Of a DNA stretch of 64,000 nucleotides, positions 3,653 to 36,333 are shown in pieces. The stretch lies in the NCBI GenBank assembly GCA_019752125.1, contig JAIEMM010000002.1, forward strand, positions 3,062-67,061. The letters are read 5' to 3'. This stretch comes from Patescibacteria group bacterium (GTDB lineage: Bacteria > Patescibacteriota > Minisyncoccia > Phycocordibacterales > SBAW01). The first letter of the stretch is position 1; each line of letters starts with the position of its first letter. Under the pieces are notes generated by a model. That model saw nothing but the letters and a program-made list of their open reading frames with translations, was not told the DNA's origin and ran no database searches. The position numbers were made by a program, and so were the translations under genes.

Positions 3653-4455
3653 ACAGTAGTCTTCACGAATGTACGAAGTATATCAATTATGTTCTGTGGA
3701 GCATTCAAGACCATTATATGGTTTCCCCCTTCTATTGTCTCAAGGCGCGCGCCTGGGATCTTCTCTTTCATCGCAACAGAATTTTCAATGCCGAATATGG
3801 TGTCTTTCGTTCCATGAATAAGAAGCGTCGGAAGTTGCAACTGCGAAAGAGTGTCCGTTGCATCAAGCTCATAAGATTGCCGTATGCAATAAAGATACGT
3901 ACGGAAACCGGTATTACAAATGTCTGTATACGAACGAGAAACATTCCAGTCGCCACTGTCGGGAAAACGCTCGTAGTCTACACGTCCGTGCTGTCTAAGT
4001 GAGAGCGGTAGATATGAGAGAACGGGAATGGGAGTAAGTAGCCAGCGCAGTATTTTTGTTGGTACGTGCCTCCCAACGCTATAGTCTCCACTTATAAGCA
4101 CCGCTCCTTTGAGTGTGTGTTGCCACTGTGCGAGATATGCCAATACAACCAGTGCGCCAAATGAATGTCCGACGAGCACATACGGATACTCTCCTATATG
4201 AGTAAGTAATAGATGAAGATCTTCTACAAAGTGCTTGAGATGATGGTCACTATAGTTTGGATAACGTTTGGAATTACCATGTCCACGCTGGTCATACGTC
4301 ACGATATTGATCTCATCTTTGAGCGCCTCTTCATACGCTTTCCACGCCGACGAGCTCCCTGAAACACCGTGCACAAAGACGAGTGTGGGGCGTCCAGGAA
4401 CAAGGTCATTGGTGCGATATACGATGCCGCGCTCTATAAAATAGTGATCCTTCAT
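3649..4455 (-). CDS. alpha/beta hydrolase fold protein
   Basis: HGxxG oxyanion segment LVFVHGVSGSS and nucleophile elbow GHSFGA. Overlaps the upstream GT4 gene by 4 nt, suggesting an operon. Confidence 0.65.
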   Translation of the reverse strand: MKDHYFIERGIVYRTNDLVPGRPTLVFVHGVSGSSSAWKAYEEALKDEINIVTYDQRGHGNSKRYPNYSDHHLKHFVEDLHLLLTHIGEYPYVLVGHSFGALVVLAYLAQWQHTLKGAVLISGDYSVGRHVPTKILRWLLTPIPVLSYLPLSLRQHGRVDYERFPDSGDWNVSRSYTDICNTGFRTYLYCIRQSYELDATDTLSQLQLPTLLIHGTKDTIFGIENSVAMKEKIPGARLETIEGGNHIMVLNAPQNIIDILRTFVKTTV

Positions 4456-4488
4456 GGGATATATACTCGTCCTGCTATACTAACAAAC

Positions 4489-5052
4489 GTGGCAGGATTA
4501 ATCGCTCTCCTTACAACCTACAAATACGTAATCATCTTCCCCCTTGGAATATTCGAGGGTCCGATTATAGCTGTTATCTGCGGATTTTTGGCCACTCTTG
4601 GAATAGTTGAGTGGTATTTTGCGTATGCCATTCTTGTGCTAGCAGACGCATTGGGCGACTGGTTCTATTATGGGCTTGGCCGCTTCGGCTCAACATATAT
4701 ACATCGTTGGGGCCACTATATAGGCCTCACGTCTGAACGTATACATAAGGCAGGTGCTTATTTTTCAAAGAATCATTTTAAAATGGTTGCCGCATCAAAA
4801 CTTATCCACGCCGGAGGCGTTGCGGGTATTGTTGCGGCAGGAACCACCAAACTTCCCTTCCTAAAATTTGCGGGACAATGTTTATTTATTTCGCTACTCC
4901 AAACCGGTATTCTTTTCTTGCTCGGCGTTTTCTTTGGCCATGCATACGACAAAATTGGCGAATACCTCAACTACTACGCTGCAGGAACTGCGTTTCTAGT
5001 ATTTCTAGGAATTACGTTCTTCGTGTTGCGTTGGCTCAAAAGCCGACCCTAG
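4489..5052 (+). CDS. DedA/SNARE-associated family membrane protein
   Basis: Conserved DedA core YKYVIIFPLGIFEGPIIAV plus multiple TM segments. The tracked ORF starts at 4369 but overlaps the convergent hydrolase gene; a GTG at 4489 is proposed as the start, without certainty. Confidence 0.5.
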   Translation: MAGLIALLTTYKYVIIFPLGIFEGPIIAVICGFLATLGIVEWYFAYAILVLADALGDWFYYGLGRFGSTYIHRWGHYIGLTSERIHKAGAYFSKNHFKMVAASKLIHAGGVAGIVAAGTTKLPFLKFAGQCLFISLLQTGILFLLGVFFGHAYDKIGEYLNYYAAGTAFLVFLGITFFVLRWLKSRP

Positions 5053-23986: not shown

Positions 23987-30880
<6,894 letters not shown>

Positions 30881-31187
30881 GGGCTGATAAATGCACGTAG
30901 TACTAAATGCGAAAAAGTGGGCGCGTAAAACGCTCCCCCGCTTGGGCTTATTGCCGTTGCTCCTTCTTGGTCTATAACCTGACCACTATGTAAACTTGTT
31001 TTGAAACCAAGCCCTCAAAACTCATTCTACTCTTCTAGCTTTCGCCTCAGAGTGCCCCGCCTTGTTTCGTTAACCAGTATACCCCTCCCGTCGTTCACGT
31101 CAAGTTTATCTGCCGCTAGGCAGGCTCATGTGGGTAAAATAAAAGACCGCCCTACCCTGGAGGGGTAGAACGGTCGAGATTGAAGGG

Positions 31188-31412
31188 CTACTTGCCCACG
31201 CCGACCGCGGAAGGAGCCCCGAGAGGCTGCCAACCTTTTTCGGTCATCACCTGCAACGGGCCGGCTTCGACCACGGGCTTACCCTGACAGTGCGGATTCC
31301 GCGCACAGAGCTTGACCCCGAAGGCACCCCTCACCTTGAGAGAGCCGCAGCCACAGGATTCGCCCGACCGAGCCGGAGCCGGAGCCGCGATCAGATTGGT
31401 TCGCTTTGCCAT
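31188..31412 (-). CDS. 74-aa GC-rich Cys-containing small protein
   Basis: About 65% GC; motifs CGCGS...C...HCQG. Followed on the minus strand by a hairpin (ctaccc..gggtag) and a T-run near 31150-31185. Confidence 0.35.
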   Translation of the reverse strand: MAKRTNLIAAPAPARSGESCGCGSLKVRGAFGVKLCARNPHCQGKPVVEAGPLQVMTEKGWQPLGAPSAVGVGK

Positions 31413-31449
31413 TGTCTTGAACTCACTATTTTCTGGGTTGGAGAGTCGA

Positions 31450-31581
31450 TTACTTCTGGTTCATGCCCTTGGCAGACTTGTCCTGGGGCTGACTGCCCCA
31501 GAACTTGTCCTCCTTCACTCCCGACGAACACCCACCGTTGGGGACCTTTTGCATGCCCTTAGCAAATTTCGGCTTCGCCAT
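31450..31581 (-). CDS. 43-aa Lys-rich small protein (not in the ORF track)
   Basis: MAKPKFAKGMQKVPNGGCSSGVKEDKFWGSQPQDKSAKGMNQK. SD aaggga upstream; putative promoter TTGACT-17-TATGGT at about 31620-31650 (minus strand). Confidence 0.3.
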   Translation of the reverse strand: MAKPKFAKGMQKVPNGGCSSGVKEDKFWGSQPQDKSAKGMNQK

Positions 31582-31705
31582 TTTGAACGTTCCCTTGTTG
31601 GAAGAACAATCTATAGAAAATATGTAAGGTTTGGACCCTCACATAACGATGACCATACTCCTCATCAAATCTTCAGTCAACGGAAGTTATAAACCTTTCC
31701 CTCGA

Positions 31706-32422
31706 CTACGCTCGGGGCAAACCACTCTGGCGCTTGGTGCGTTGAGTATCTATATTTGCGTGATGGCCTGAAAGTAGGACCTTCGGCACGCGATATTCTT
31801 TCTTCTTGTGAGTGAATACTTCAGGGCGAGTGTAGACATCGTGGCTTGCAACACGTTCCTCTTCCAACGATTCAAACTTGCCTAAAACACCCTTAATCTG
31901 ACGTGCAGTCGAATCAATAATAGTAAGCGCTGGAACTTCCCCGCCGGTCAAAATATACGGACCGACTGAAATCTCTTCCGCTTTCAAAATCTTCTTTACG
32001 CGGGCATCAATCCCCTCGTATCTGCCGCACAAAATAATCACTTCTTTTTCTTTTGCGAGTTTCTTAGCGTATGCATTAGTAAACTCCTTCCCACCCGCCG
32101 AAGTGATAAGAATTTTTGGTCTTGCTTGTCTAGTCCCATATATGGGACTAGATTTCGATTTACCCGTTATTTTTTCTACTGCTTTGATGAACGGCCCTGC
32201 CTGCAGCACCATGCCCGGGCCGCCGCCGTACGCTTTGTCGTCTACTTTTTTATAAAACCACTCTTTTGTCCCGCGAACTCCCTTTGCAGGAGCGCTCACA
32301 AAATCACGCAGTTGGTACGCCTTAACGCTCAGAAGTTTGTTTTTCTGGGCACGCCCCAAAATAGACGCGCTTGTATACGCTTCAATAACCTCTGGGAAGA
32401 GTGTTACTACGTGAAATTTCAT
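31706..32422 (-). CDS. trmD: tRNA (guanine37-N1)-methyltransferase
   Basis: MKFHVVTLFPEVIEAY N-terminus and LCGRYEGIDARV SPOUT motif. Carries an in-frame palindromic insertion encoding SSPIYGTRQ at 32129-32152. Confidence 0.85.
   Translation of the reverse strand: MKFHVVTLFPEVIEAYTSASILGRAQKNKLLSVKAYQLRDFVSAPAKGVRGTKEWFYKKVDDKAYGGGPGMVLQAGPFIKAVEKITGKSKSSPIYGTRQARPKILITSAGGKEFTNAYAKKLAKEKEVIILCGRYEGIDARVKKILKAEEISVGPYILTGGEVPALTIIDSTARQIKGVLGKFESLEEERVASHDVYTRPEVFTHKKKEYRVPKVLLSGHHANIDTQRTKRQSGLPRA
32129..32152. repeat. AGTCCCATATATGGGACT-family perfect palindrome (in-frame in trmD)
   Basis: tctagtcccata|tatgggactaga, 24 nt. The same core occurs at 38893-38918 and 39378-39397. Confidence 0.7.
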
Positions 32423-32509
32423 AATTCGCACAATACCATAGTTTTATTGCATTCATAGGCTCGAATGCTATAGTGCGCGCAGTAGCACATCAACTGGAAA
32501 GGACATCGA

Positions 32510-33403
32510 ATGTGCATTCTGCGTGATGGAACTATGTGCATCCTTCTTTCGCGAGGCGAACAGTTGGCGCAGCACAATTTCGAGGAGCGTAAGGGGCCTT
32601 ACCCCAAAGCGCTCGCCGACCGCCTGCACGAGCAAGGAATCATGACTCGTGATGAACATCTACGGCAGAGTCTGCTCCGGCGAAAGGAGCATATCGAAAG
32701 GTATGCTCAGCAGGGGCCTAGACGCTTCTATCTGGGAATGGACTGTTCTGCTGAAGAGAATGCGTTCATTCATGGGAAGTCTCATGCCTTGCAGGCGGAT
32801 TTTTTCTTCCCGCGTGAACTGTGGGGCCCGATGTTTGAAGGTTTTACAGAACTCCGCAGACAACGCTTCCGCACCCACCTCACCAACTGGCATGGCACTG
32901 CGGAGCAGGCACTGTTTCTACTATCGTACCCCGAGTTCGAGAAATGGTTCGATGAATGTGTACCGAACGAAAAGGAACACGGCCGCAAGAAACGTATCCT
33001 AATCGACCGCGTACTTGCAAACACGAAACTGCTCACGAAAGTCACACAGACAGCTTCGACCCACACGCTGGGCATCATTGCTGAGCGGATGTTCTTCGAC
33101 CTTTCAAGCAACAACGTCACACTTTGGAACAGCGGCGTCCTTGCAATGATCGTCCAAGCGCTTCCGGAACAGCATCGACACCACTTTGAAAGGCTTGGCA
33201 GGATGCGCACCACGCTCCACGCCCTGCCCGAAAATGGTCCGTCGAAAATTTCTGCACACAGTAAGCGTCAAGCGATCAAGAAGCATGTCCGAATTTGCGC
33301 CTATCTGCTCCGAGGCAACCCCTCTATCGTGCGAGACGCTATCAAGCACATAGTTGATAGTCTGACTGCGTCGCAGACACACTCAACCGCGCTCGCCGCC
33401 TGA
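32510..33403 (+). CDS. hypothetical Arg/His-rich protein (GC-rich ORFan) inserted in the rpsP-trmD operon, opposite orientation
   Basis: 297 aa at about 55% GC. Own promoter TTGCAT-16-TATAGT around 32455-32485 and SD aaagga. Terminator hairpin aacgcc...ggcgtttttt at 33411-33446. Confidence 0.4.
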   Translation: MCILRDGTMCILLSRGEQLAQHNFEERKGPYPKALADRLHEQGIMTRDEHLRQSLLRRKEHIERYAQQGPRRFYLGMDCSAEENAFIHGKSHALQADFFFPRELWGPMFEGFTELRRQRFRTHLTNWHGTAEQALFLLSYPEFEKWFDECVPNEKEHGRKKRILIDRVLANTKLLTKVTQTASTHTLGIIAERMFFDLSSNNVTLWNSGVLAMIVQALPEQHRHHFERLGRMRTTLHALPENGPSKISAHSKRQAIKKHVRICAYLLRGNPSIVRDAIKHIVDSLTASQTHSTALAA

Positions 33404-33459
33404 ACAAACAACGCCCCGGAGTTATCCGAGGCGTTTTTTCTTTTTAGAAATTTGAGAGA

Positions 33460-33834
33460 TTAAAAATTACCCAAGCTGTCCATTGCTTCATCAATAGACT
33501 TCATCTGTGGAGTTGTAGGAGCTTCGTGAGTTCCATCCCAACCAGTGTTAGCGCTGCCGCCACCATGTTCTGCTGAACGCACGCCGCCTACTGGTTCGTT
33601 AATTTTCAAGTTAACGCGGGCGTTGTGCTTCATGCCGACAACGCGGAGAAGCGTGCGGATTGCCTTTGCGGTATTGCCCGAACGGCCGATGACTTTGCCC
33701 ATATCTTCTTGATTGAGATCAAGCATAAGGAGCACGCCCATCTCGTCTACGGTGCGAGTGATCTTAACGTCTTCCGGGTGGTCAACCAAACCCTTAACGA
33801 CAAACTCCAAAAACTCCTGATCTTTTTCTGTCAT
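33460..33834 (-). CDS. KH-domain RNA-binding protein (YlqC/UPF0109 family) with C-terminal extension
   Basis: GKVIGRSGNTAKAIRTLL KH motif; conserved position downstream of rpsP. C-terminal Gly/Thr-rich tail of about 40 aa. Confidence 0.7.
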   Translation of the reverse strand: MTEKDQEFLEFVVKGLVDHPEDVKITRTVDEMGVLLMLDLNQEDMGKVIGRSGNTAKAIRTLLRVVGMKHNARVNLKINEPVGGVRSAEHGGGSANTGWDGTHEAPTTPQMKSIDEAMDSLGNF

Positions 33835-33875: not shown

Positions 33876-34271
33876 TTAGGCTTGTGGAGCTTCCTGCGCA
33901 ACTGAATTATCCTCAGGTGTCGTTTCTGTTGGAGCAGCGGCTTCTTCAACTACTGCAGCTGGTGCTGGAGTTTCTGCAGGGGCTTCGGCAACTGGAGCTG
34001 CTTTGAACGCTGGAAGAATGTTTATCTTCTTTGCGTCAATTATTTTTTGAGATACGAGGAGGTTGTGTACGGTGTCAGAAACTGTTGCGCCTTGTGACAT
34101 CCAGTGTTTGATGCGCTCTCCGTTAAGTTCAACACGGTTCATTTTCGGATTGTAAGAACCAACCATTTCGGTGTATTTACCTGGTTGTGGCTTGCGTTTG
34201 CTTTCAACGACAATAACCCGGTATGACGGGTCGTTCTTTCTTCCTACGCGGCTGAGTCTGATGGTCAACAT
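33876..34271 (-). CDS. rpsP: 30S ribosomal protein S16 with Ala/Pro/Glu-rich C-terminal extension
   Basis: MLTIRLSRVGRKNDPSYRVIVVES N-terminus. The tracked ORF extends 22 codons further upstream. Confidence 0.85.
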   Translation of the reverse strand: MLTIRLSRVGRKNDPSYRVIVVESKRKPQPGKYTEMVGSYNPKMNRVELNGERIKHWMSQGATVSDTVHNLLVSQKIIDAKKINILPAFKAAPVAEAPAETPAPAAVVEEAAAPTETTPEDNSVAQEAPQA

Positions 34272-34362
34272 ATGTTCTAAGTAAAATGCCCCTCGTGGGG
34301 ATGGCGATACTCTAGCAGGATGCTGGTAAAACGTCAATGAATGCGCTAGTATACGCTTATTA

Positions 34363-36333
34363 ATGCCTCCCGAACGACGTGTTTCGCCTAGTCAGGCGGA
34401 GAAAAAGACCATTTCAGGAATTGTGCAGGTAACCCGCAAAGGTGTGGGCTATATGCCCATATCTGCTGACGCTCCTAAGAAGAAATCTTCGGACGATATC
34501 GAGATATTTCCTGAAAAACTTAACGGTGCACTGAACGGCGACCACGTTGAAGTTGAACTACTTTCCGTCTTCCCCCGCCCTCGCGGCCGCGTTAAGAAAA
34601 TCGTACAGCGCGCGAAAACTCGTTTCGTATGCACCCTTCGAGTCGTCACAGGAAAACATGTTGCCGTCGCAGACGACATGCGCTTCCCTAAGCCCATCGA
34701 AATCGTAAATTCAAAAGAAGACAAGGAAGGCACGAAAGTTTTAGTCGAACTCACTTCATTCGATGGGGAGAAGGCTGTGGGTAAAATCGTAGAAGTGATA
34801 GGCGCTGCAGGAGAACATCGTGTCGAGATGAACGCCATCGTTCTTGAACACGGGTTTGAAACTCAGTTCCCTCCTGAAGTATTAGCGCAGGCACAGGATA
34901 TAGAAAAGAATCACGCAAAGATAATTGCAGGCGAAGCCGGGAAGCGCACAGACTTCCGCAACAAACTTACATTCACCATCGACCCTGTTGATGCAAAAGA
35001 CTTCGACGATGCACTTTCCATTGAACAAATCGATGCAGATACATACGAGATAGGCGTACATATTGCAGATGCATCATATTTCGTGCGTCCAGGCACAGCA
35101 CTCGACGACGAGGCTATAAAGCGCGGCACGAGCGTCTACTTGGTTGACGCGACTATTCCTATGCTTCCGCACGAGCTCTCTGGAAATGTATGCAGCTTGA
35201 AGGCAGATGAAGACAGACTCGCCTTCTCAGCAATCTTCAATATCACTACAAAAGGAGAAGTTCTTAGCCGCCGTTTTGAGAAAACTATCATTCGTTCCAA
35301 CAAGCGTTTTACCTACGAGCAAGCCCAGGAAATTTTGGACGGAAAAGTGTCTGCTCCAGAATATGCACCAGCTTTGAATACTCTCTGGTCTATCGCGCAG
35401 ATTCTCCGCAAAGAAAAAACTAACCGAGGCGCAATAGACTTTGGCGACAATGAGGTTCGCTTTACACTTGATGAGAACGGCACCCCTATTGGCGTTGTGC
35501 GCAAAGAGCGCATCGATACAAACCTTTTGATCGAAGAATTCATGCTTTTAGCAAACCGTGAAGTCGCAAAGTATGTCTCAAAACTTGCTGAGAAAAATCC
35601 TGAACATGGTTTCGTATTTTTGTACCGCATCCACGACGACCCTAAGCCCGACCGCATCGATGAACTCGCAACCTTCGTTCGCGCTATTGGATATGACTTT
35701 GGTCAAAATAAAAAGAAGCCAACAGCAAAAGATATTGCGAAGTTGTTGAAAGACATCGAGGGCACGCCTGAAGAACATCTTATCCGCACAGCAACGCTGC
35801 GCAGTATGGCGAAGGCAATTTACTCGACGCGCAACATCGGCCACTTCGGATTAGCGTTCGACTACTACACACACTTTACCTCTCCTATCCGCCGCTACCC
35901 GGACGTGCTTGTACACCGCATACTGGCATCCCACCTCGACGGGCACCCTATAACACGCAAAGAATATATATCTCTTGAAAAGATGTGCATTGCTGCGAGC
36001 GAACGCGAAGCGAAAGCGGTCTCTGCTGAACGCGACTCTATCCGCTACAAACAAGTTGAATATTTGAGCGCACGCATCGGACAGGAATTTGATGCAATAG
36101 TTTCCGGCGTCACAGACTGGGGTATGTACGTGGAAGATAAAGAAACTGCATCGGAAGGTCTCGTACGTATGCGCTCACTTGAAGGAGATTTCTTTGAACA
36201 TCGTCCAAAAGAATATGCGGTTGTTGGCCAGCGCACACAAAAAAAATACGCGCTCGGAGATTCCGTGCGCGTAAAACTTGTGGCTGCCGACTTAGCGGCT
36301 AGGACTGCGGACTTTGAGCTGGTCAGCGCCTGA
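34363..36333 (+). CDS. rnr: ribonuclease R / exoribonuclease II family
   Basis: RNB catalytic motifs (FTIDPVDAKDFDDALS, HFGLAFDYYTHFTSPIRRYPD) and C-terminal S1 domain. Confidence 0.85.
   Translation: MPPERRVSPSQAEKKTISGIVQVTRKGVGYMPISADAPKKKSSDDIEIFPEKLNGALNGDHVEVELLSVFPRPRGRVKKIVQRAKTRFVCTLRVVTGKHVAVADDMRFPKPIEIVNSKEDKEGTKVLVELTSFDGEKAVGKIVEVIGAAGEHRVEMNAIVLEHGFETQFPPEVLAQAQDIEKNHAKIIAGEAGKRTDFRNKLTFTIDPVDAKDFDDALSIEQIDADTYEIGVHIADASYFVRPGTALDDEAIKRGTSVYLVDATIPMLPHELSGNVCSLKADEDRLAFSAIFNITTKGEVLSRRFEKTIIRSNKRFTYEQAQEILDGKVSAPEYAPALNTLWSIAQILRKEKTNRGAIDFGDNEVRFTLDENGTPIGVVRKERIDTNLLIEEFMLLANREVAKYVSKLAEKNPEHGFVFLYRIHDDPKPDRIDELATFVRAIGYDFGQNKKKPTAKDIAKLLKDIEGTPEEHLIRTATLRSMAKAIYSTRNIGHFGLAFDYYTHFTSPIRRYPDVLVHRILASHLDGHPITRKEYISLEKMCIAASEREAKAVSAERDSIRYKQVEYLSARIGQEFDAIVSGVTDWGMYVEDKETASEGLVRMRSLEGDFFEHRPKEYAVVGQRTQKKYALGDSVRVKLVAADLAARTADFELVSA

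Follow-up and report, generated by a model that had tools for sequence, protein, structure and literature searches.

The DNA considered here is a stretch of 64,000 nucleotides (nt) from a Patescibacteria group bacterium (contig JAIEMM010000002.1 of assembly GCA_019752125.1), which we call the window throughout, always meaning the whole stretch at its full length, and the element of interest within it is a GC-rich cassette of two small open reading frames (ORFs) on the minus strand at 31145-31680, between trmD and the promoter of a fused rpoB-rpoC gene (rpoBC). The original prediction, made by reading the letters of this DNA, took the cassette for the occupant of a slot that rplS or rimM had left in a ribosomal operon, and offered the insertion of foreign genes or non-orthologous displacement as the cause. 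The comparison with relatives described below leads to a different picture, in which the cassette is a lineage's own possession.

The cassette between trmD and rpoBC

Directly after the trmD stop codon, a scan located a promoter of the form TTGACT-17-TATGGT (31652-31680, minus strand). By count, promoter-like sites were not above chance, two being found and 2.2 expected in shuffles, and the support for this one comes from its conservation in relatives: a promoter block of ~30 nt is nearly invariant in the window and in loci L001, L002, L003, L063, L100, L101, L102 and L103. The transcript would open with a stem-loop (31621-31645, minus strand; -11.2 kcal/mol, z=-3.4) that carries a GUCCAAA loop and is followed by a U-rich tract; it is retained with base changes in L065, L002 and L101, and the other loci have a different 5' untranslated region (UTR). 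Next comes ORF-A (ORF43; 31450-31581, minus strand), which encodes a basic peptide of 43 amino acids (aa), MAKPKFAKGM.KVP..., and has a Shine-Dalgarno (SD)-like AGGGA before its ATG, and then ORF-B (ORF74; 31188-31412, minus strand), whose 74-aa product has a basic N-terminal tail and four Cys. The unit closes with a strong intrinsic terminator found by scan (31145-31175, minus strand; -23.7 kcal/mol, z=-5.8), a 13-bp stem followed by UUUUAUUUU, which recurs at the equivalent position in all relatives. The two mini-ORFs after trmD, with a promoter and terminator of their own, were therefore found as first described, and the promoter proved to be conserved. Within ORF43 (31462-31569) there is an internal direct repeat, K-F-A-K-G-M and K-S-A-K-G-M, and a 15-bp inverted repeat at 31475-31509 folds into a strong hairpin within the coding sequence.

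The relatives came from a TrmD scan of species-representative genomes, which gave 62 loci, and a metagenome scan, which gave 34 more. The comparison set comprised 103 loci, of which ~90 were from Paceibacteria and two, L058 and L093 (labelled Actinomycetes), served as the outgroup. The closest loci were metagenome-assembled genomes of Candidatus Adlerbacteria; the remainder were mainly Paceibacteria that carried the labels Nomurabacteria or Paceibacterota or, often, the wrong label Saccharibacteria. The window is thus a relative of Candidatus Adlerbacteria, in the Paceibacteria of the Candidate Phyla Radiation (CPR). At the Adlerbacteria level, the trmD-rpoBC spacer is ~780-1000 nt long and the same cassette layout was found in L001/L066, L002, L003/L067, L063, L065, L100, L101, L102 and L103, and partially in L064, which lacks the ORF-A end, giving 10 distinct loci beside the window. 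SD-like motifs precede the ATGs of both ORFs, and the start context of ORF-B is conserved, the second ORF being preceded in nearly all loci by GAGGGA-like and AAGA(C/T)AATG contexts. Three subclades were defined by TrmD, KH and RpoB identity, with the window, L001, L002, L065 and L102 in clade I, L003, L063 and L101 in clade II, and L100 and L103 in clade III. The cassette is present in all three of the Adlerbacteria subclades sampled and must therefore be older than their split. From this layout and its conservation we consider it probable that 31145-31680 is transcribed as a unit of its own, conserved in the clade and located between trmD and the promoter of rpoBC.

The phylogenetic boundary of the cassette is marked by L068, of the relatives that keep the rpoBC leader the most distant, in whose trmD-rpoBC spacer (4219-4512, minus strand) a 97-aa ORF on the opposite strand takes the place of the two genes. 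The partial locus L064 (JBFOMI010032067.1, 1-2223) is of a different kind: a contig of 61% GC on which DoxX, polyketide-cyclase-like and Gly-zipper genes are joined to the end of an ORF-A-like sequence, to an ORF-B homologue (P0005) and to the promoter and leader that rpoBC has in Adlerbacteria. A chimeric assembly is the probable explanation, a rearrangement the alternative.

If the place of the cassette is fixed, its content is not. ORF-A occurs as three unrelated sequences, each conserved as a protein: type 1 (MAKPKFAKGM...) in the window, L065, L002, L003 and L063, type 2 (MDRSRKS...RGKPIMTK...) in L001, L100 and L102, and type 3, of 80 aa, in L101 and L103. Type 1 is thus spread over clades I and II, type 2 over I and III, and type 3 over II and III. 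There are also three 5' UTR types, which assort independently of the ORF-A type, and several subtypes of ORF-B, and the types are patchy across the three subclades. Searches with the ORF-A types against the Protein Data Bank (PDB), including ribosomal micro-proteins, and against family models gave either nothing or matches at chance level. Taken together, these distributions indicate a slot that is fixed in position with a content that is mosaic relative to the phylogeny of the backbone, a pattern that fits an exchange of content by homologous recombination in the conserved flanks, or else a polymorphism of long standing.

ORF length alone is no evidence that these are genes, because stop-free runs of at least 74 codons arose in 86% of shuffles of the mini-ORF segment. 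The substitutions are more telling. For ORF-B, the pairwise ratio of nonsynonymous to synonymous rates (dN/dS) was 0.26-0.64, with indels in frame, and for ORF-A the corresponding ratio of proportions (pN/pS) was 0.37-0.97; the first 22 residues of ORF-A are conserved between the window and L065. Differences at codon positions 1/2/3 numbered 7/8/16 for ORF-B of L003 and L063, 2/0/9 and 11/8/21 for ORF-A type 2, and 16/18/46 for type 3. Only the sense frame is open in 11/11 loci, the best antisense frame (-1) being open in 5/11, and the orientation of promoter and terminator is consistent with the sense strand. The nucleotides of the GC-rich stretch cannot be aligned between subclades, and its Cys pattern, start codons and SD-like sites are nonetheless retained. 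These patterns argue that ORF-A and ORF-B are genuine protein-coding genes under relaxed purifying selection. Two plus-strand ORFs antisense to them (126 and 90 aa) were considered as genes and rejected, no antisense frame being open throughout; their tblastn matches only mirror the nucleotide conservation of ORF-A and the promoter region.

Both genes are unusual in composition. In GC content, ORF74 reaches 64.9% and ORF43 55.3%, with 55% over 31150-31700, a fraction of 0.61 over 31145-31460 and 49% for the window, so that the ~65% GC originally given for both mini-ORFs holds for ORF74 and not for ORF43. Their description as rich in Lys and Cys was likewise half right: ORF43 is Lys-rich (21%) with one Cys, and ORF74 has its four Cys in a sequence rich in Gly, Ala and Pro. 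At third codon positions (GC3) the values are 0.72 for ORF74, 0.77 for ORF43 and 0.58-0.85 for all cassette ORFs, in genomes of ~50% GC in which rpsP, trmD, KH, RNase R and rpoBC have a GC3 of 0.39-0.53. Because synonymous sites have diverged heavily and GC3 is nevertheless high throughout, the bias appears to be maintained and not to be the fading signature of an import; GC-biased gene conversion at a recombination hotspot and selection on mRNA structure are both possibilities.

The four Cys of ORF74 are arranged as C20-x-C22 ... C36-x5-C42, or C-G-C-G-x13-C-x5-C, with C20, C22 and C42 invariant and C36 conserved within its subtype. Two conserved Cys pairs were also found in P0001-P0005 and P0010-P0012, and these, with the protein of L002, make up the ORF-B family. 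Word-indexed searches of 5.8 billion clusters and an exhaustive HMMER search of 1.84 billion representatives retrieved eight members in total, and 7/7 of those traced to contigs were at the trmD-rpoBC locus. Members range from 57 to 126 aa. The subtype closest to the window is that of L100 (P0011) and L101 (P0010); in other members C-x-C or C-x4-C precedes C-x2-C, and the long forms have W-[LM]-x-E-R-R-I-A-G at their end. An AlphaFold2 (AF2) model of ORF74 places beta-hairpins by the Cys pairs (strands 25-28 and 34-36), at a low mean predicted local distance difference test (pLDDT) score of 52.6. No Pfam, NCBIfam, PHROGs or PADLOC family matched a cassette protein above threshold; the sub-threshold matches of ORF-B were all to zinc ribbons (TiaS, IBR, the Cas12f TNB domain and eL43). 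ORF-B is, on this evidence, a small, basic-tailed and clade-restricted protein with a predicted four-Cys zinc ribbon. It would be expected to bind zinc, and the cassette to be transcribed and translated. What is new is a putative, tiny, unannotated and clade-specific zinc-ribbon family in a conserved, mosaic slot beside a fused RNA polymerase gene.

Gene order around trmD in the Paceibacteria

The backbone on which the cassette sits is readily identified. The rpsP gene (bS16; 33876-34337, minus strand) matches Pfam Ribosomal_S16 at E=7.5e-18, and since the domain begins only at residue 30 of the listed ORF, the listed ORF, which starts at a TTG, is probably too long and the true start is likely the ATG at 34271 (MLTIRLSR...). 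It is followed by a gene for a KhpA-like KH-domain protein with a Gly-rich C-terminal extension (33460-33834, minus strand; Pfam KH_KhpA-B, E=1.5e-21), whose identity among Adlerbacteria-clade loci is 81-99%. Next on this strand is trmD, encoding the tRNA m1G37 methyltransferase (listed ORF 31706-32431, minus strand; Pfam tRNA_m1G_MT, E=2e-33), for which the conserved start is the ATG at 32422 (MKFHVV...), in a context common to all relatives, and not the GTG at 32431. The ORF listing gives rpoBC as a single gene of 2297 aa (23987-30880, minus strand), and the gene for RNase R (34363-36333) is divergent from the rpsP cluster. The cluster of rpsP, KH gene and trmD is split by a gene on the opposite strand, orf297, as had been described; both the coordinates and the Pfam identities hold.

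A divergent RNase R gene followed by rpsP-KH-trmD-rpoB is the standard order, and recurs in most of the ~90 Paceibacteria loci. The gap from KH to trmD is 13-250 nt in most of these, and that from trmD to rpoB 136-290 nt in many. The two junctions are also insertion hotspots across the Paceibacteria (L004-L099): in about a quarter of loci there are unrelated genes between KH and trmD, judged by eye to include a Nudix-like protein of 154-170 aa and a BipA/TypA-like GTPase block, and trmD and rpoB lie anywhere between 136 nt and 4.6 kb apart. Fusion of rpoB and rpoC was found, beside the window, in L001, L003 and L100 of the Adlerbacteria clade and in L010 (labelled Taylorbacteria), the L100 homologue having both the Rpb2 and Rpb1 Pfam domains, and a separate rpoB of 1043-1073 aa was found in ~35 other Paceibacteria loci. 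The fusion has already been mentioned for Candidatus Adlerbacteria (PMC11515920).

Neither rplS nor rimM belongs to this order. Of the 103 loci, just the two of the outgroup, L058 and L093, have trmD flanked by rplS and a true rimM. In tblastn, the RplS sequences of E. coli and of B. subtilis matched those two loci at 1e-30 to 1e-39 as a positive control; their best match in the window had E=2.6, and they found no RplS in any Paceibacteria locus of the set. RimM was not found in the window by tblastn with the E. coli sequence or with that of L058, itself verified by TIGR02273 (E=6.3e-35), whose best match in the window (E=0.6) fell inside trmD. There is accordingly no rimM between the KH gene or rpsP and trmD, and no rplS directly after trmD, and the absence of both from the 64-kb window, earlier checked only by eye, is borne out. 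A survey of 505 CPR genomes found rimM to be nearly absent in the CPR (PMC12641178). Because the backbone of the class lacks rplS next to trmD and rimM is nearly absent in the CPR, the vacated slot of the original prediction does not exist here: the order is normal for Paceibacteria, and the idea that mini-ORFs had occupied a place once held by rplS or rimM came from applying an E. coli/Firmicutes template where it does not fit. What looked like a gutted ribosomal operon becomes the usual Paceibacteria arrangement plus a known loss of rimM.

The orf297 module and the rpoBC leader

The gene that splits the cluster, orf297 (32510-33403, plus strand), runs opposite to the operon and encodes a 297-aa protein that is predicted to be all-alpha (AF2 pLDDT 63.4) and ends in -LAA. 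Over 97% of its length it matches, with 100% identity, the NCBI entry 'hypothetical protein K2Q00_00235 [Patescibacteria group bacterium]'. Five homologues were found, with identities of 34-43%, all of them at the identical site and in the same orientation, in L100, L101, L102 and L103. The gene is absent from L001, L002, L003 and L063, where KH and trmD are joined by a junction of 13-14 nt, and within each subclade it is present in only some genomes. Its first description as a GC-rich ORFan rich in Arg and His stands in part, with Arg at 9% and His at 6%, and fails in a GC of 53.8% and in the homologues. The N-terminal 60 residues are highly conserved (pN 0.11-0.21, with 0.23-0.55 in the rest and pS saturated). 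The orf297 tree disagrees with the backbone, identity being 64% for L101 and L102, which belong to different clades, and 39% for the window and L102, which share one. Foldseek on the PDB gave no match below E=0.6, and no family was matched in Pfam, NCBIfam, PHROGs or PADLOC; a scan of viral contigs found no relatives. The operon splitter is thus a clade-restricted variable module and not an identifiable foreign gene.

Between the convergent KH gene and orf297, the terminator scan found a GC-rich hairpin (33410-33435), a probable bidirectional terminator with an equivalent at the same place in L100, L101, L102 and L103. On the other side of the gene is a region with inferred promoter function in both directions (32432-32509): a TATAGT-like element (32466-32476) faces orf297, and TATGGTATTGTGC (32420-32440) stands just before the ATG of trmD. 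Both elements are kept in 5/5 occupied sites and absent from empty ones, so that the module appears to carry a replacement promoter for trmD. The -LAA terminus is shared by 4/5 of the homologues (window 33392-33403; L100, L102 and L103). As -LAA is also the C-terminal tripeptide of the ssrA degradation tag recognised by ClpXP, the likeness hints that orf297 may be proteolytically controlled. A gene for a tmRNA was seen in L003 (699-1022, minus strand), ~7 kb upstream of trmD, as a permuted two-piece gene matched by Rfam alpha_tmRNA and tmRNA_permuted; Rfam and ARAGORN found no tmRNA in the window.

Downstream of the cassette, rpoBC has a promoter of its own (31076-31103, minus strand), TTGACG-16-TATACT, found by scan with 10/12 matches and conserved in nine relatives. 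Its 5' leader of ~190 nt (30881-31075, minus strand) has a nucleotide identity to L001 and L002 of 89-91%, which exceeds the conservation of the neighbouring proteins. By alignment and RNAalifold, a hairpin at 30998-31021 in the leader shows one compensatory UA-to-CG change, several other hairpins vary, and an invariant terminator-like hairpin GGGAGCG-UUUUA-CGCGCCC with a U-run (30909-30937) lies ~30-45 nt before the rpoBC start codon. This motif was found only in the 11 Adlerbacteria-clade loci of the 103, and Rfam had no match for the leader. These features make the leader a candidate attenuator.

Interpretation and likeness to known systems

The reading that we prefer, of the cassette as a transcription unit that the clade has kept, can now be set out as a history. 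It would start from the ancestral Paceibacteria order, RNase R (divergent) and then rpsP-KH-trmD-rpoB, with rimM lost and rplS elsewhere in the genome. Between trmD and rpoB, the Adlerbacteria lineage would have gained a unit consisting of a sigma-70-type promoter, a 5' stem-loop, ORF-A, ORF-B and the intrinsic terminator, in which the slot stayed fixed and the content became mosaic, by recombination through the conserved flanks or as old polymorphism. A second variable module, orf297, would have come with a terminator of its own and two divergent promoters, one of which would re-supply trmD.

Several observations weigh against this reading or parts of it. The persistently high GC3 of the cassette is not explained by it. 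The comparison involves ~10 distinct genomes, a small sample, and within it L103 has a Cys-free protein of 66 aa in the ORF-B slot, and L068 keeps the rpoBC leader and has no cassette, from which it follows that the cassette is dispensable. ORF-A of the window and L065 differ with a nearly neutral pN/pS of 0.97. The window's ORF74 is the most divergent member of its family (19-36% pairwise identity), tblastn with it found nothing significant, and the zinc-ribbon fold was assigned from the Cys pattern because the AF2 model is of low confidence. The cassette products are predicted from sequence. As to function, ORF-B has a basic tail and always lies directly before the promoter and leader of rpoBC, and may thus be a small zinc-dependent protein that binds nucleic acid or RNA polymerase as an accessory factor of gene expression; this guess, drawn only from position and composition, we hold tentatively and think more apt to be wrong than right. 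Bolder, and to our minds improbable, is the proposal that the spacer is a fixed expression slot with recombination-swapped genes in which ORF-B would be a lineage-specific subunit or regulator of the fused beta-beta' polymerase, acting, for instance, on the terminator-like element of the rpoBC leader 200 nt downstream.

Among other explanations, a selfish or conflict module, such as a toxin-antitoxin-like or defence pair at a recombination hotspot, has several features in its favour: two genes with their own promoter, fast evolution, interchangeable types, a patchy distribution and dispensability in L068. Beside known type II toxin-antitoxin partners, a first gene of 38-43 aa is small. No cassette protein matched the defence and toxin-antitoxin models of PADLOC and PHROGs, or any Pfam or NCBIfam family, however, and the cassette is nearly universal within the clade and not sporadic, so that we regard such a module as improbable too. 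A defence or phage origin was also pursued directly and rejected, PADLOC giving no match at E up to 1, PHROGs only chance-level matches, and the viral contigs no relative of orf297.

That foreign GC-rich genes recently entered a core ribosomal operon by horizontal transfer, the first of the two causes originally offered, is a reading that draws on the composition given above, on the unrelated inserts that many Paceibacteria have at the same two junctions, and on the absence of orf297 from sister genomes whose KH proteins are 95-99% identical. For orf297 the claim partly holds, that module being present in some Adlerbacteria genomes and absent from others, and it is the only one of the two that close relatives lack. 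For the cassette it fails, since the same promoter and the same terminator position recur at the same place in all three subclades and high GC3 marks every member despite strongly diverged synonymous sites. Throughout the lineage the small ORFs keep this position, which counts against the prediction, but at a GC that is not normal, which does not. Outside relatives were not found, the ORF-B and orf297 families occurring only at this locus and clade in the 5.8 billion clusters and ORF-B being clade-only in the 1.84 billion representatives as well, and neither mobility genes nor target-site duplications or flanking repeats were seen around either module, beyond short repeats at chance level. Synteny thus shows both modules as lineage-specific additions to a backbone that is elsewhere contiguous, and a recent foreign insertion has only a slim chance of being right.

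A structured non-coding RNA in which the ORFs are incidental is very unlikely. In its favour, the minus strand folds more stably than shuffled sequence (z=-3.1 over 511 nt), structured RNAs typically have a high GC, and the chance length of the ORFs and the antisense frame open in some loci could be read in the same way, but such an RNA would not account for the third-position bias, the dN/dS below 1, the protein-level conservation of three unrelated ORF-A sequences in one slot or the Cys pattern, start codons and SD-like sites that outlast any alignment of the nucleotides. In Rfam 15, window positions 30800-31800 and the equivalent spacers of relatives gave nothing at gathering score and, with E allowed up to 10, only chance-level matches (ar7, E=7.5; VqmR, E=1.3), and RNase P, tmRNA, signal recognition particle (SRP) RNA, 6S RNA and riboswitches were rejected for the GC-rich patch, none being found by Rfam and ARAGORN.

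Displacement of bL19 and/or RimM by the small proteins is scarcely credible: the mini-ORFs do lie where rplS lies in most bacteria, and their size and the basic character of ORF-A and of the ORF-B tail recall many ribosomal proteins, but cassette-free trmD-rpoB adjacency is so common in other Paceibacteria that no compensation is needed, rplS is linked to trmD nowhere in the class, uL1 and bL9 are the only ribosomal proteins to fall in the 10-90% conservation band in the CPR, with bL30 cited as absent across all its lineages (PMC12641178), and the cassette proteins vary in type, change at a rate far too high for core ribosomal proteins and match neither Ribosomal_L19 in Pfam or NCBIfam nor any other ribosomal protein. 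ORF-A type 3 had been considered as a degenerate bL19, with no Pfam match and a BLASTP score against B. subtilis RplS of E=23.

With the cassette understood as a clade-conserved unit, its interest lies in its being a clade-restricted pair of small proteins that are labelled hypothetical or possibly missed by annotation pipelines, and, should either bind RNA polymerase or the ribosome, in adding to the short list of CPR-specific parts of gene expression. The mosaic content of the slot, together with its sustained high GC3, also offers a small, clean case for the study of recombination in uncultured organisms with reduced genomes.

Among known proteins, ORF-B comes closest to small four-Cys zinc ribbons such as the TNB domain of TnpB and Cas12 and the C-terminal ribbon of TiaS, with which it shares two knuckles 12-16 residues apart and, in the long forms, a second knuckle of the form W/F-x-C-x-x-C-G. 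The best PDB sequence match of the long-form profile was the zinc ribbon of Cas-phi3 at E=0.0025, and P0005 matched Pfam Zn_ribbon_TiaS at E=0.0011 and Cas12f1-like_TNB at E=0.012, below the curated cut-offs. ORF-B differs from TnpB and Cas12 in being free-standing, without a nuclease domain, and in the window's spacings, C-x-C and C-x5-C; its score against PF07282 was 16.2 bits, where the cut-off is 26.3, and no RuvC domain was found. A remnant of a TnpB/Cas12 ribbon was rejected, as the Cas-phi3 match fades to E=0.2 with the full-family profile, and the similarity is taken to be that of zinc ribbons in general. The RbpA of Actinobacteria, which binds RNA polymerase, is likewise small and shares with the long forms its zinc ribbon, its Lys/Pro-rich linker and its W-x-x-E-R-R motif; the gene for ORF-B adjoins RNA polymerase genes. 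Homology with RbpA (PF13397) was rejected: the Pfam match was weak (E=0.46, below cut-off), hhalign against two RbpA sequences gave a probability of 1-11%, and PDB profile searches at E up to 10 returned no RbpA chain.

At the level of gene order, the window agrees with the canonical trmD operon (that of E. coli, and rpsP-khpA-rimM-trmD-rplS in Firmicutes) in having rpsP, the KH gene and trmD co-oriented and in the canonical order, and departs from it in that trmD is followed by rpoBC and the cluster is interrupted by a plus-strand ORF. The polymerase gene itself has a counterpart in the rplKAJL-rpoBC operon of E. coli: although rpoBC of the window has its own promoter and no preceding rplJL, both have a long conserved leader and a terminator-like hairpin just upstream of the polymerase gene.

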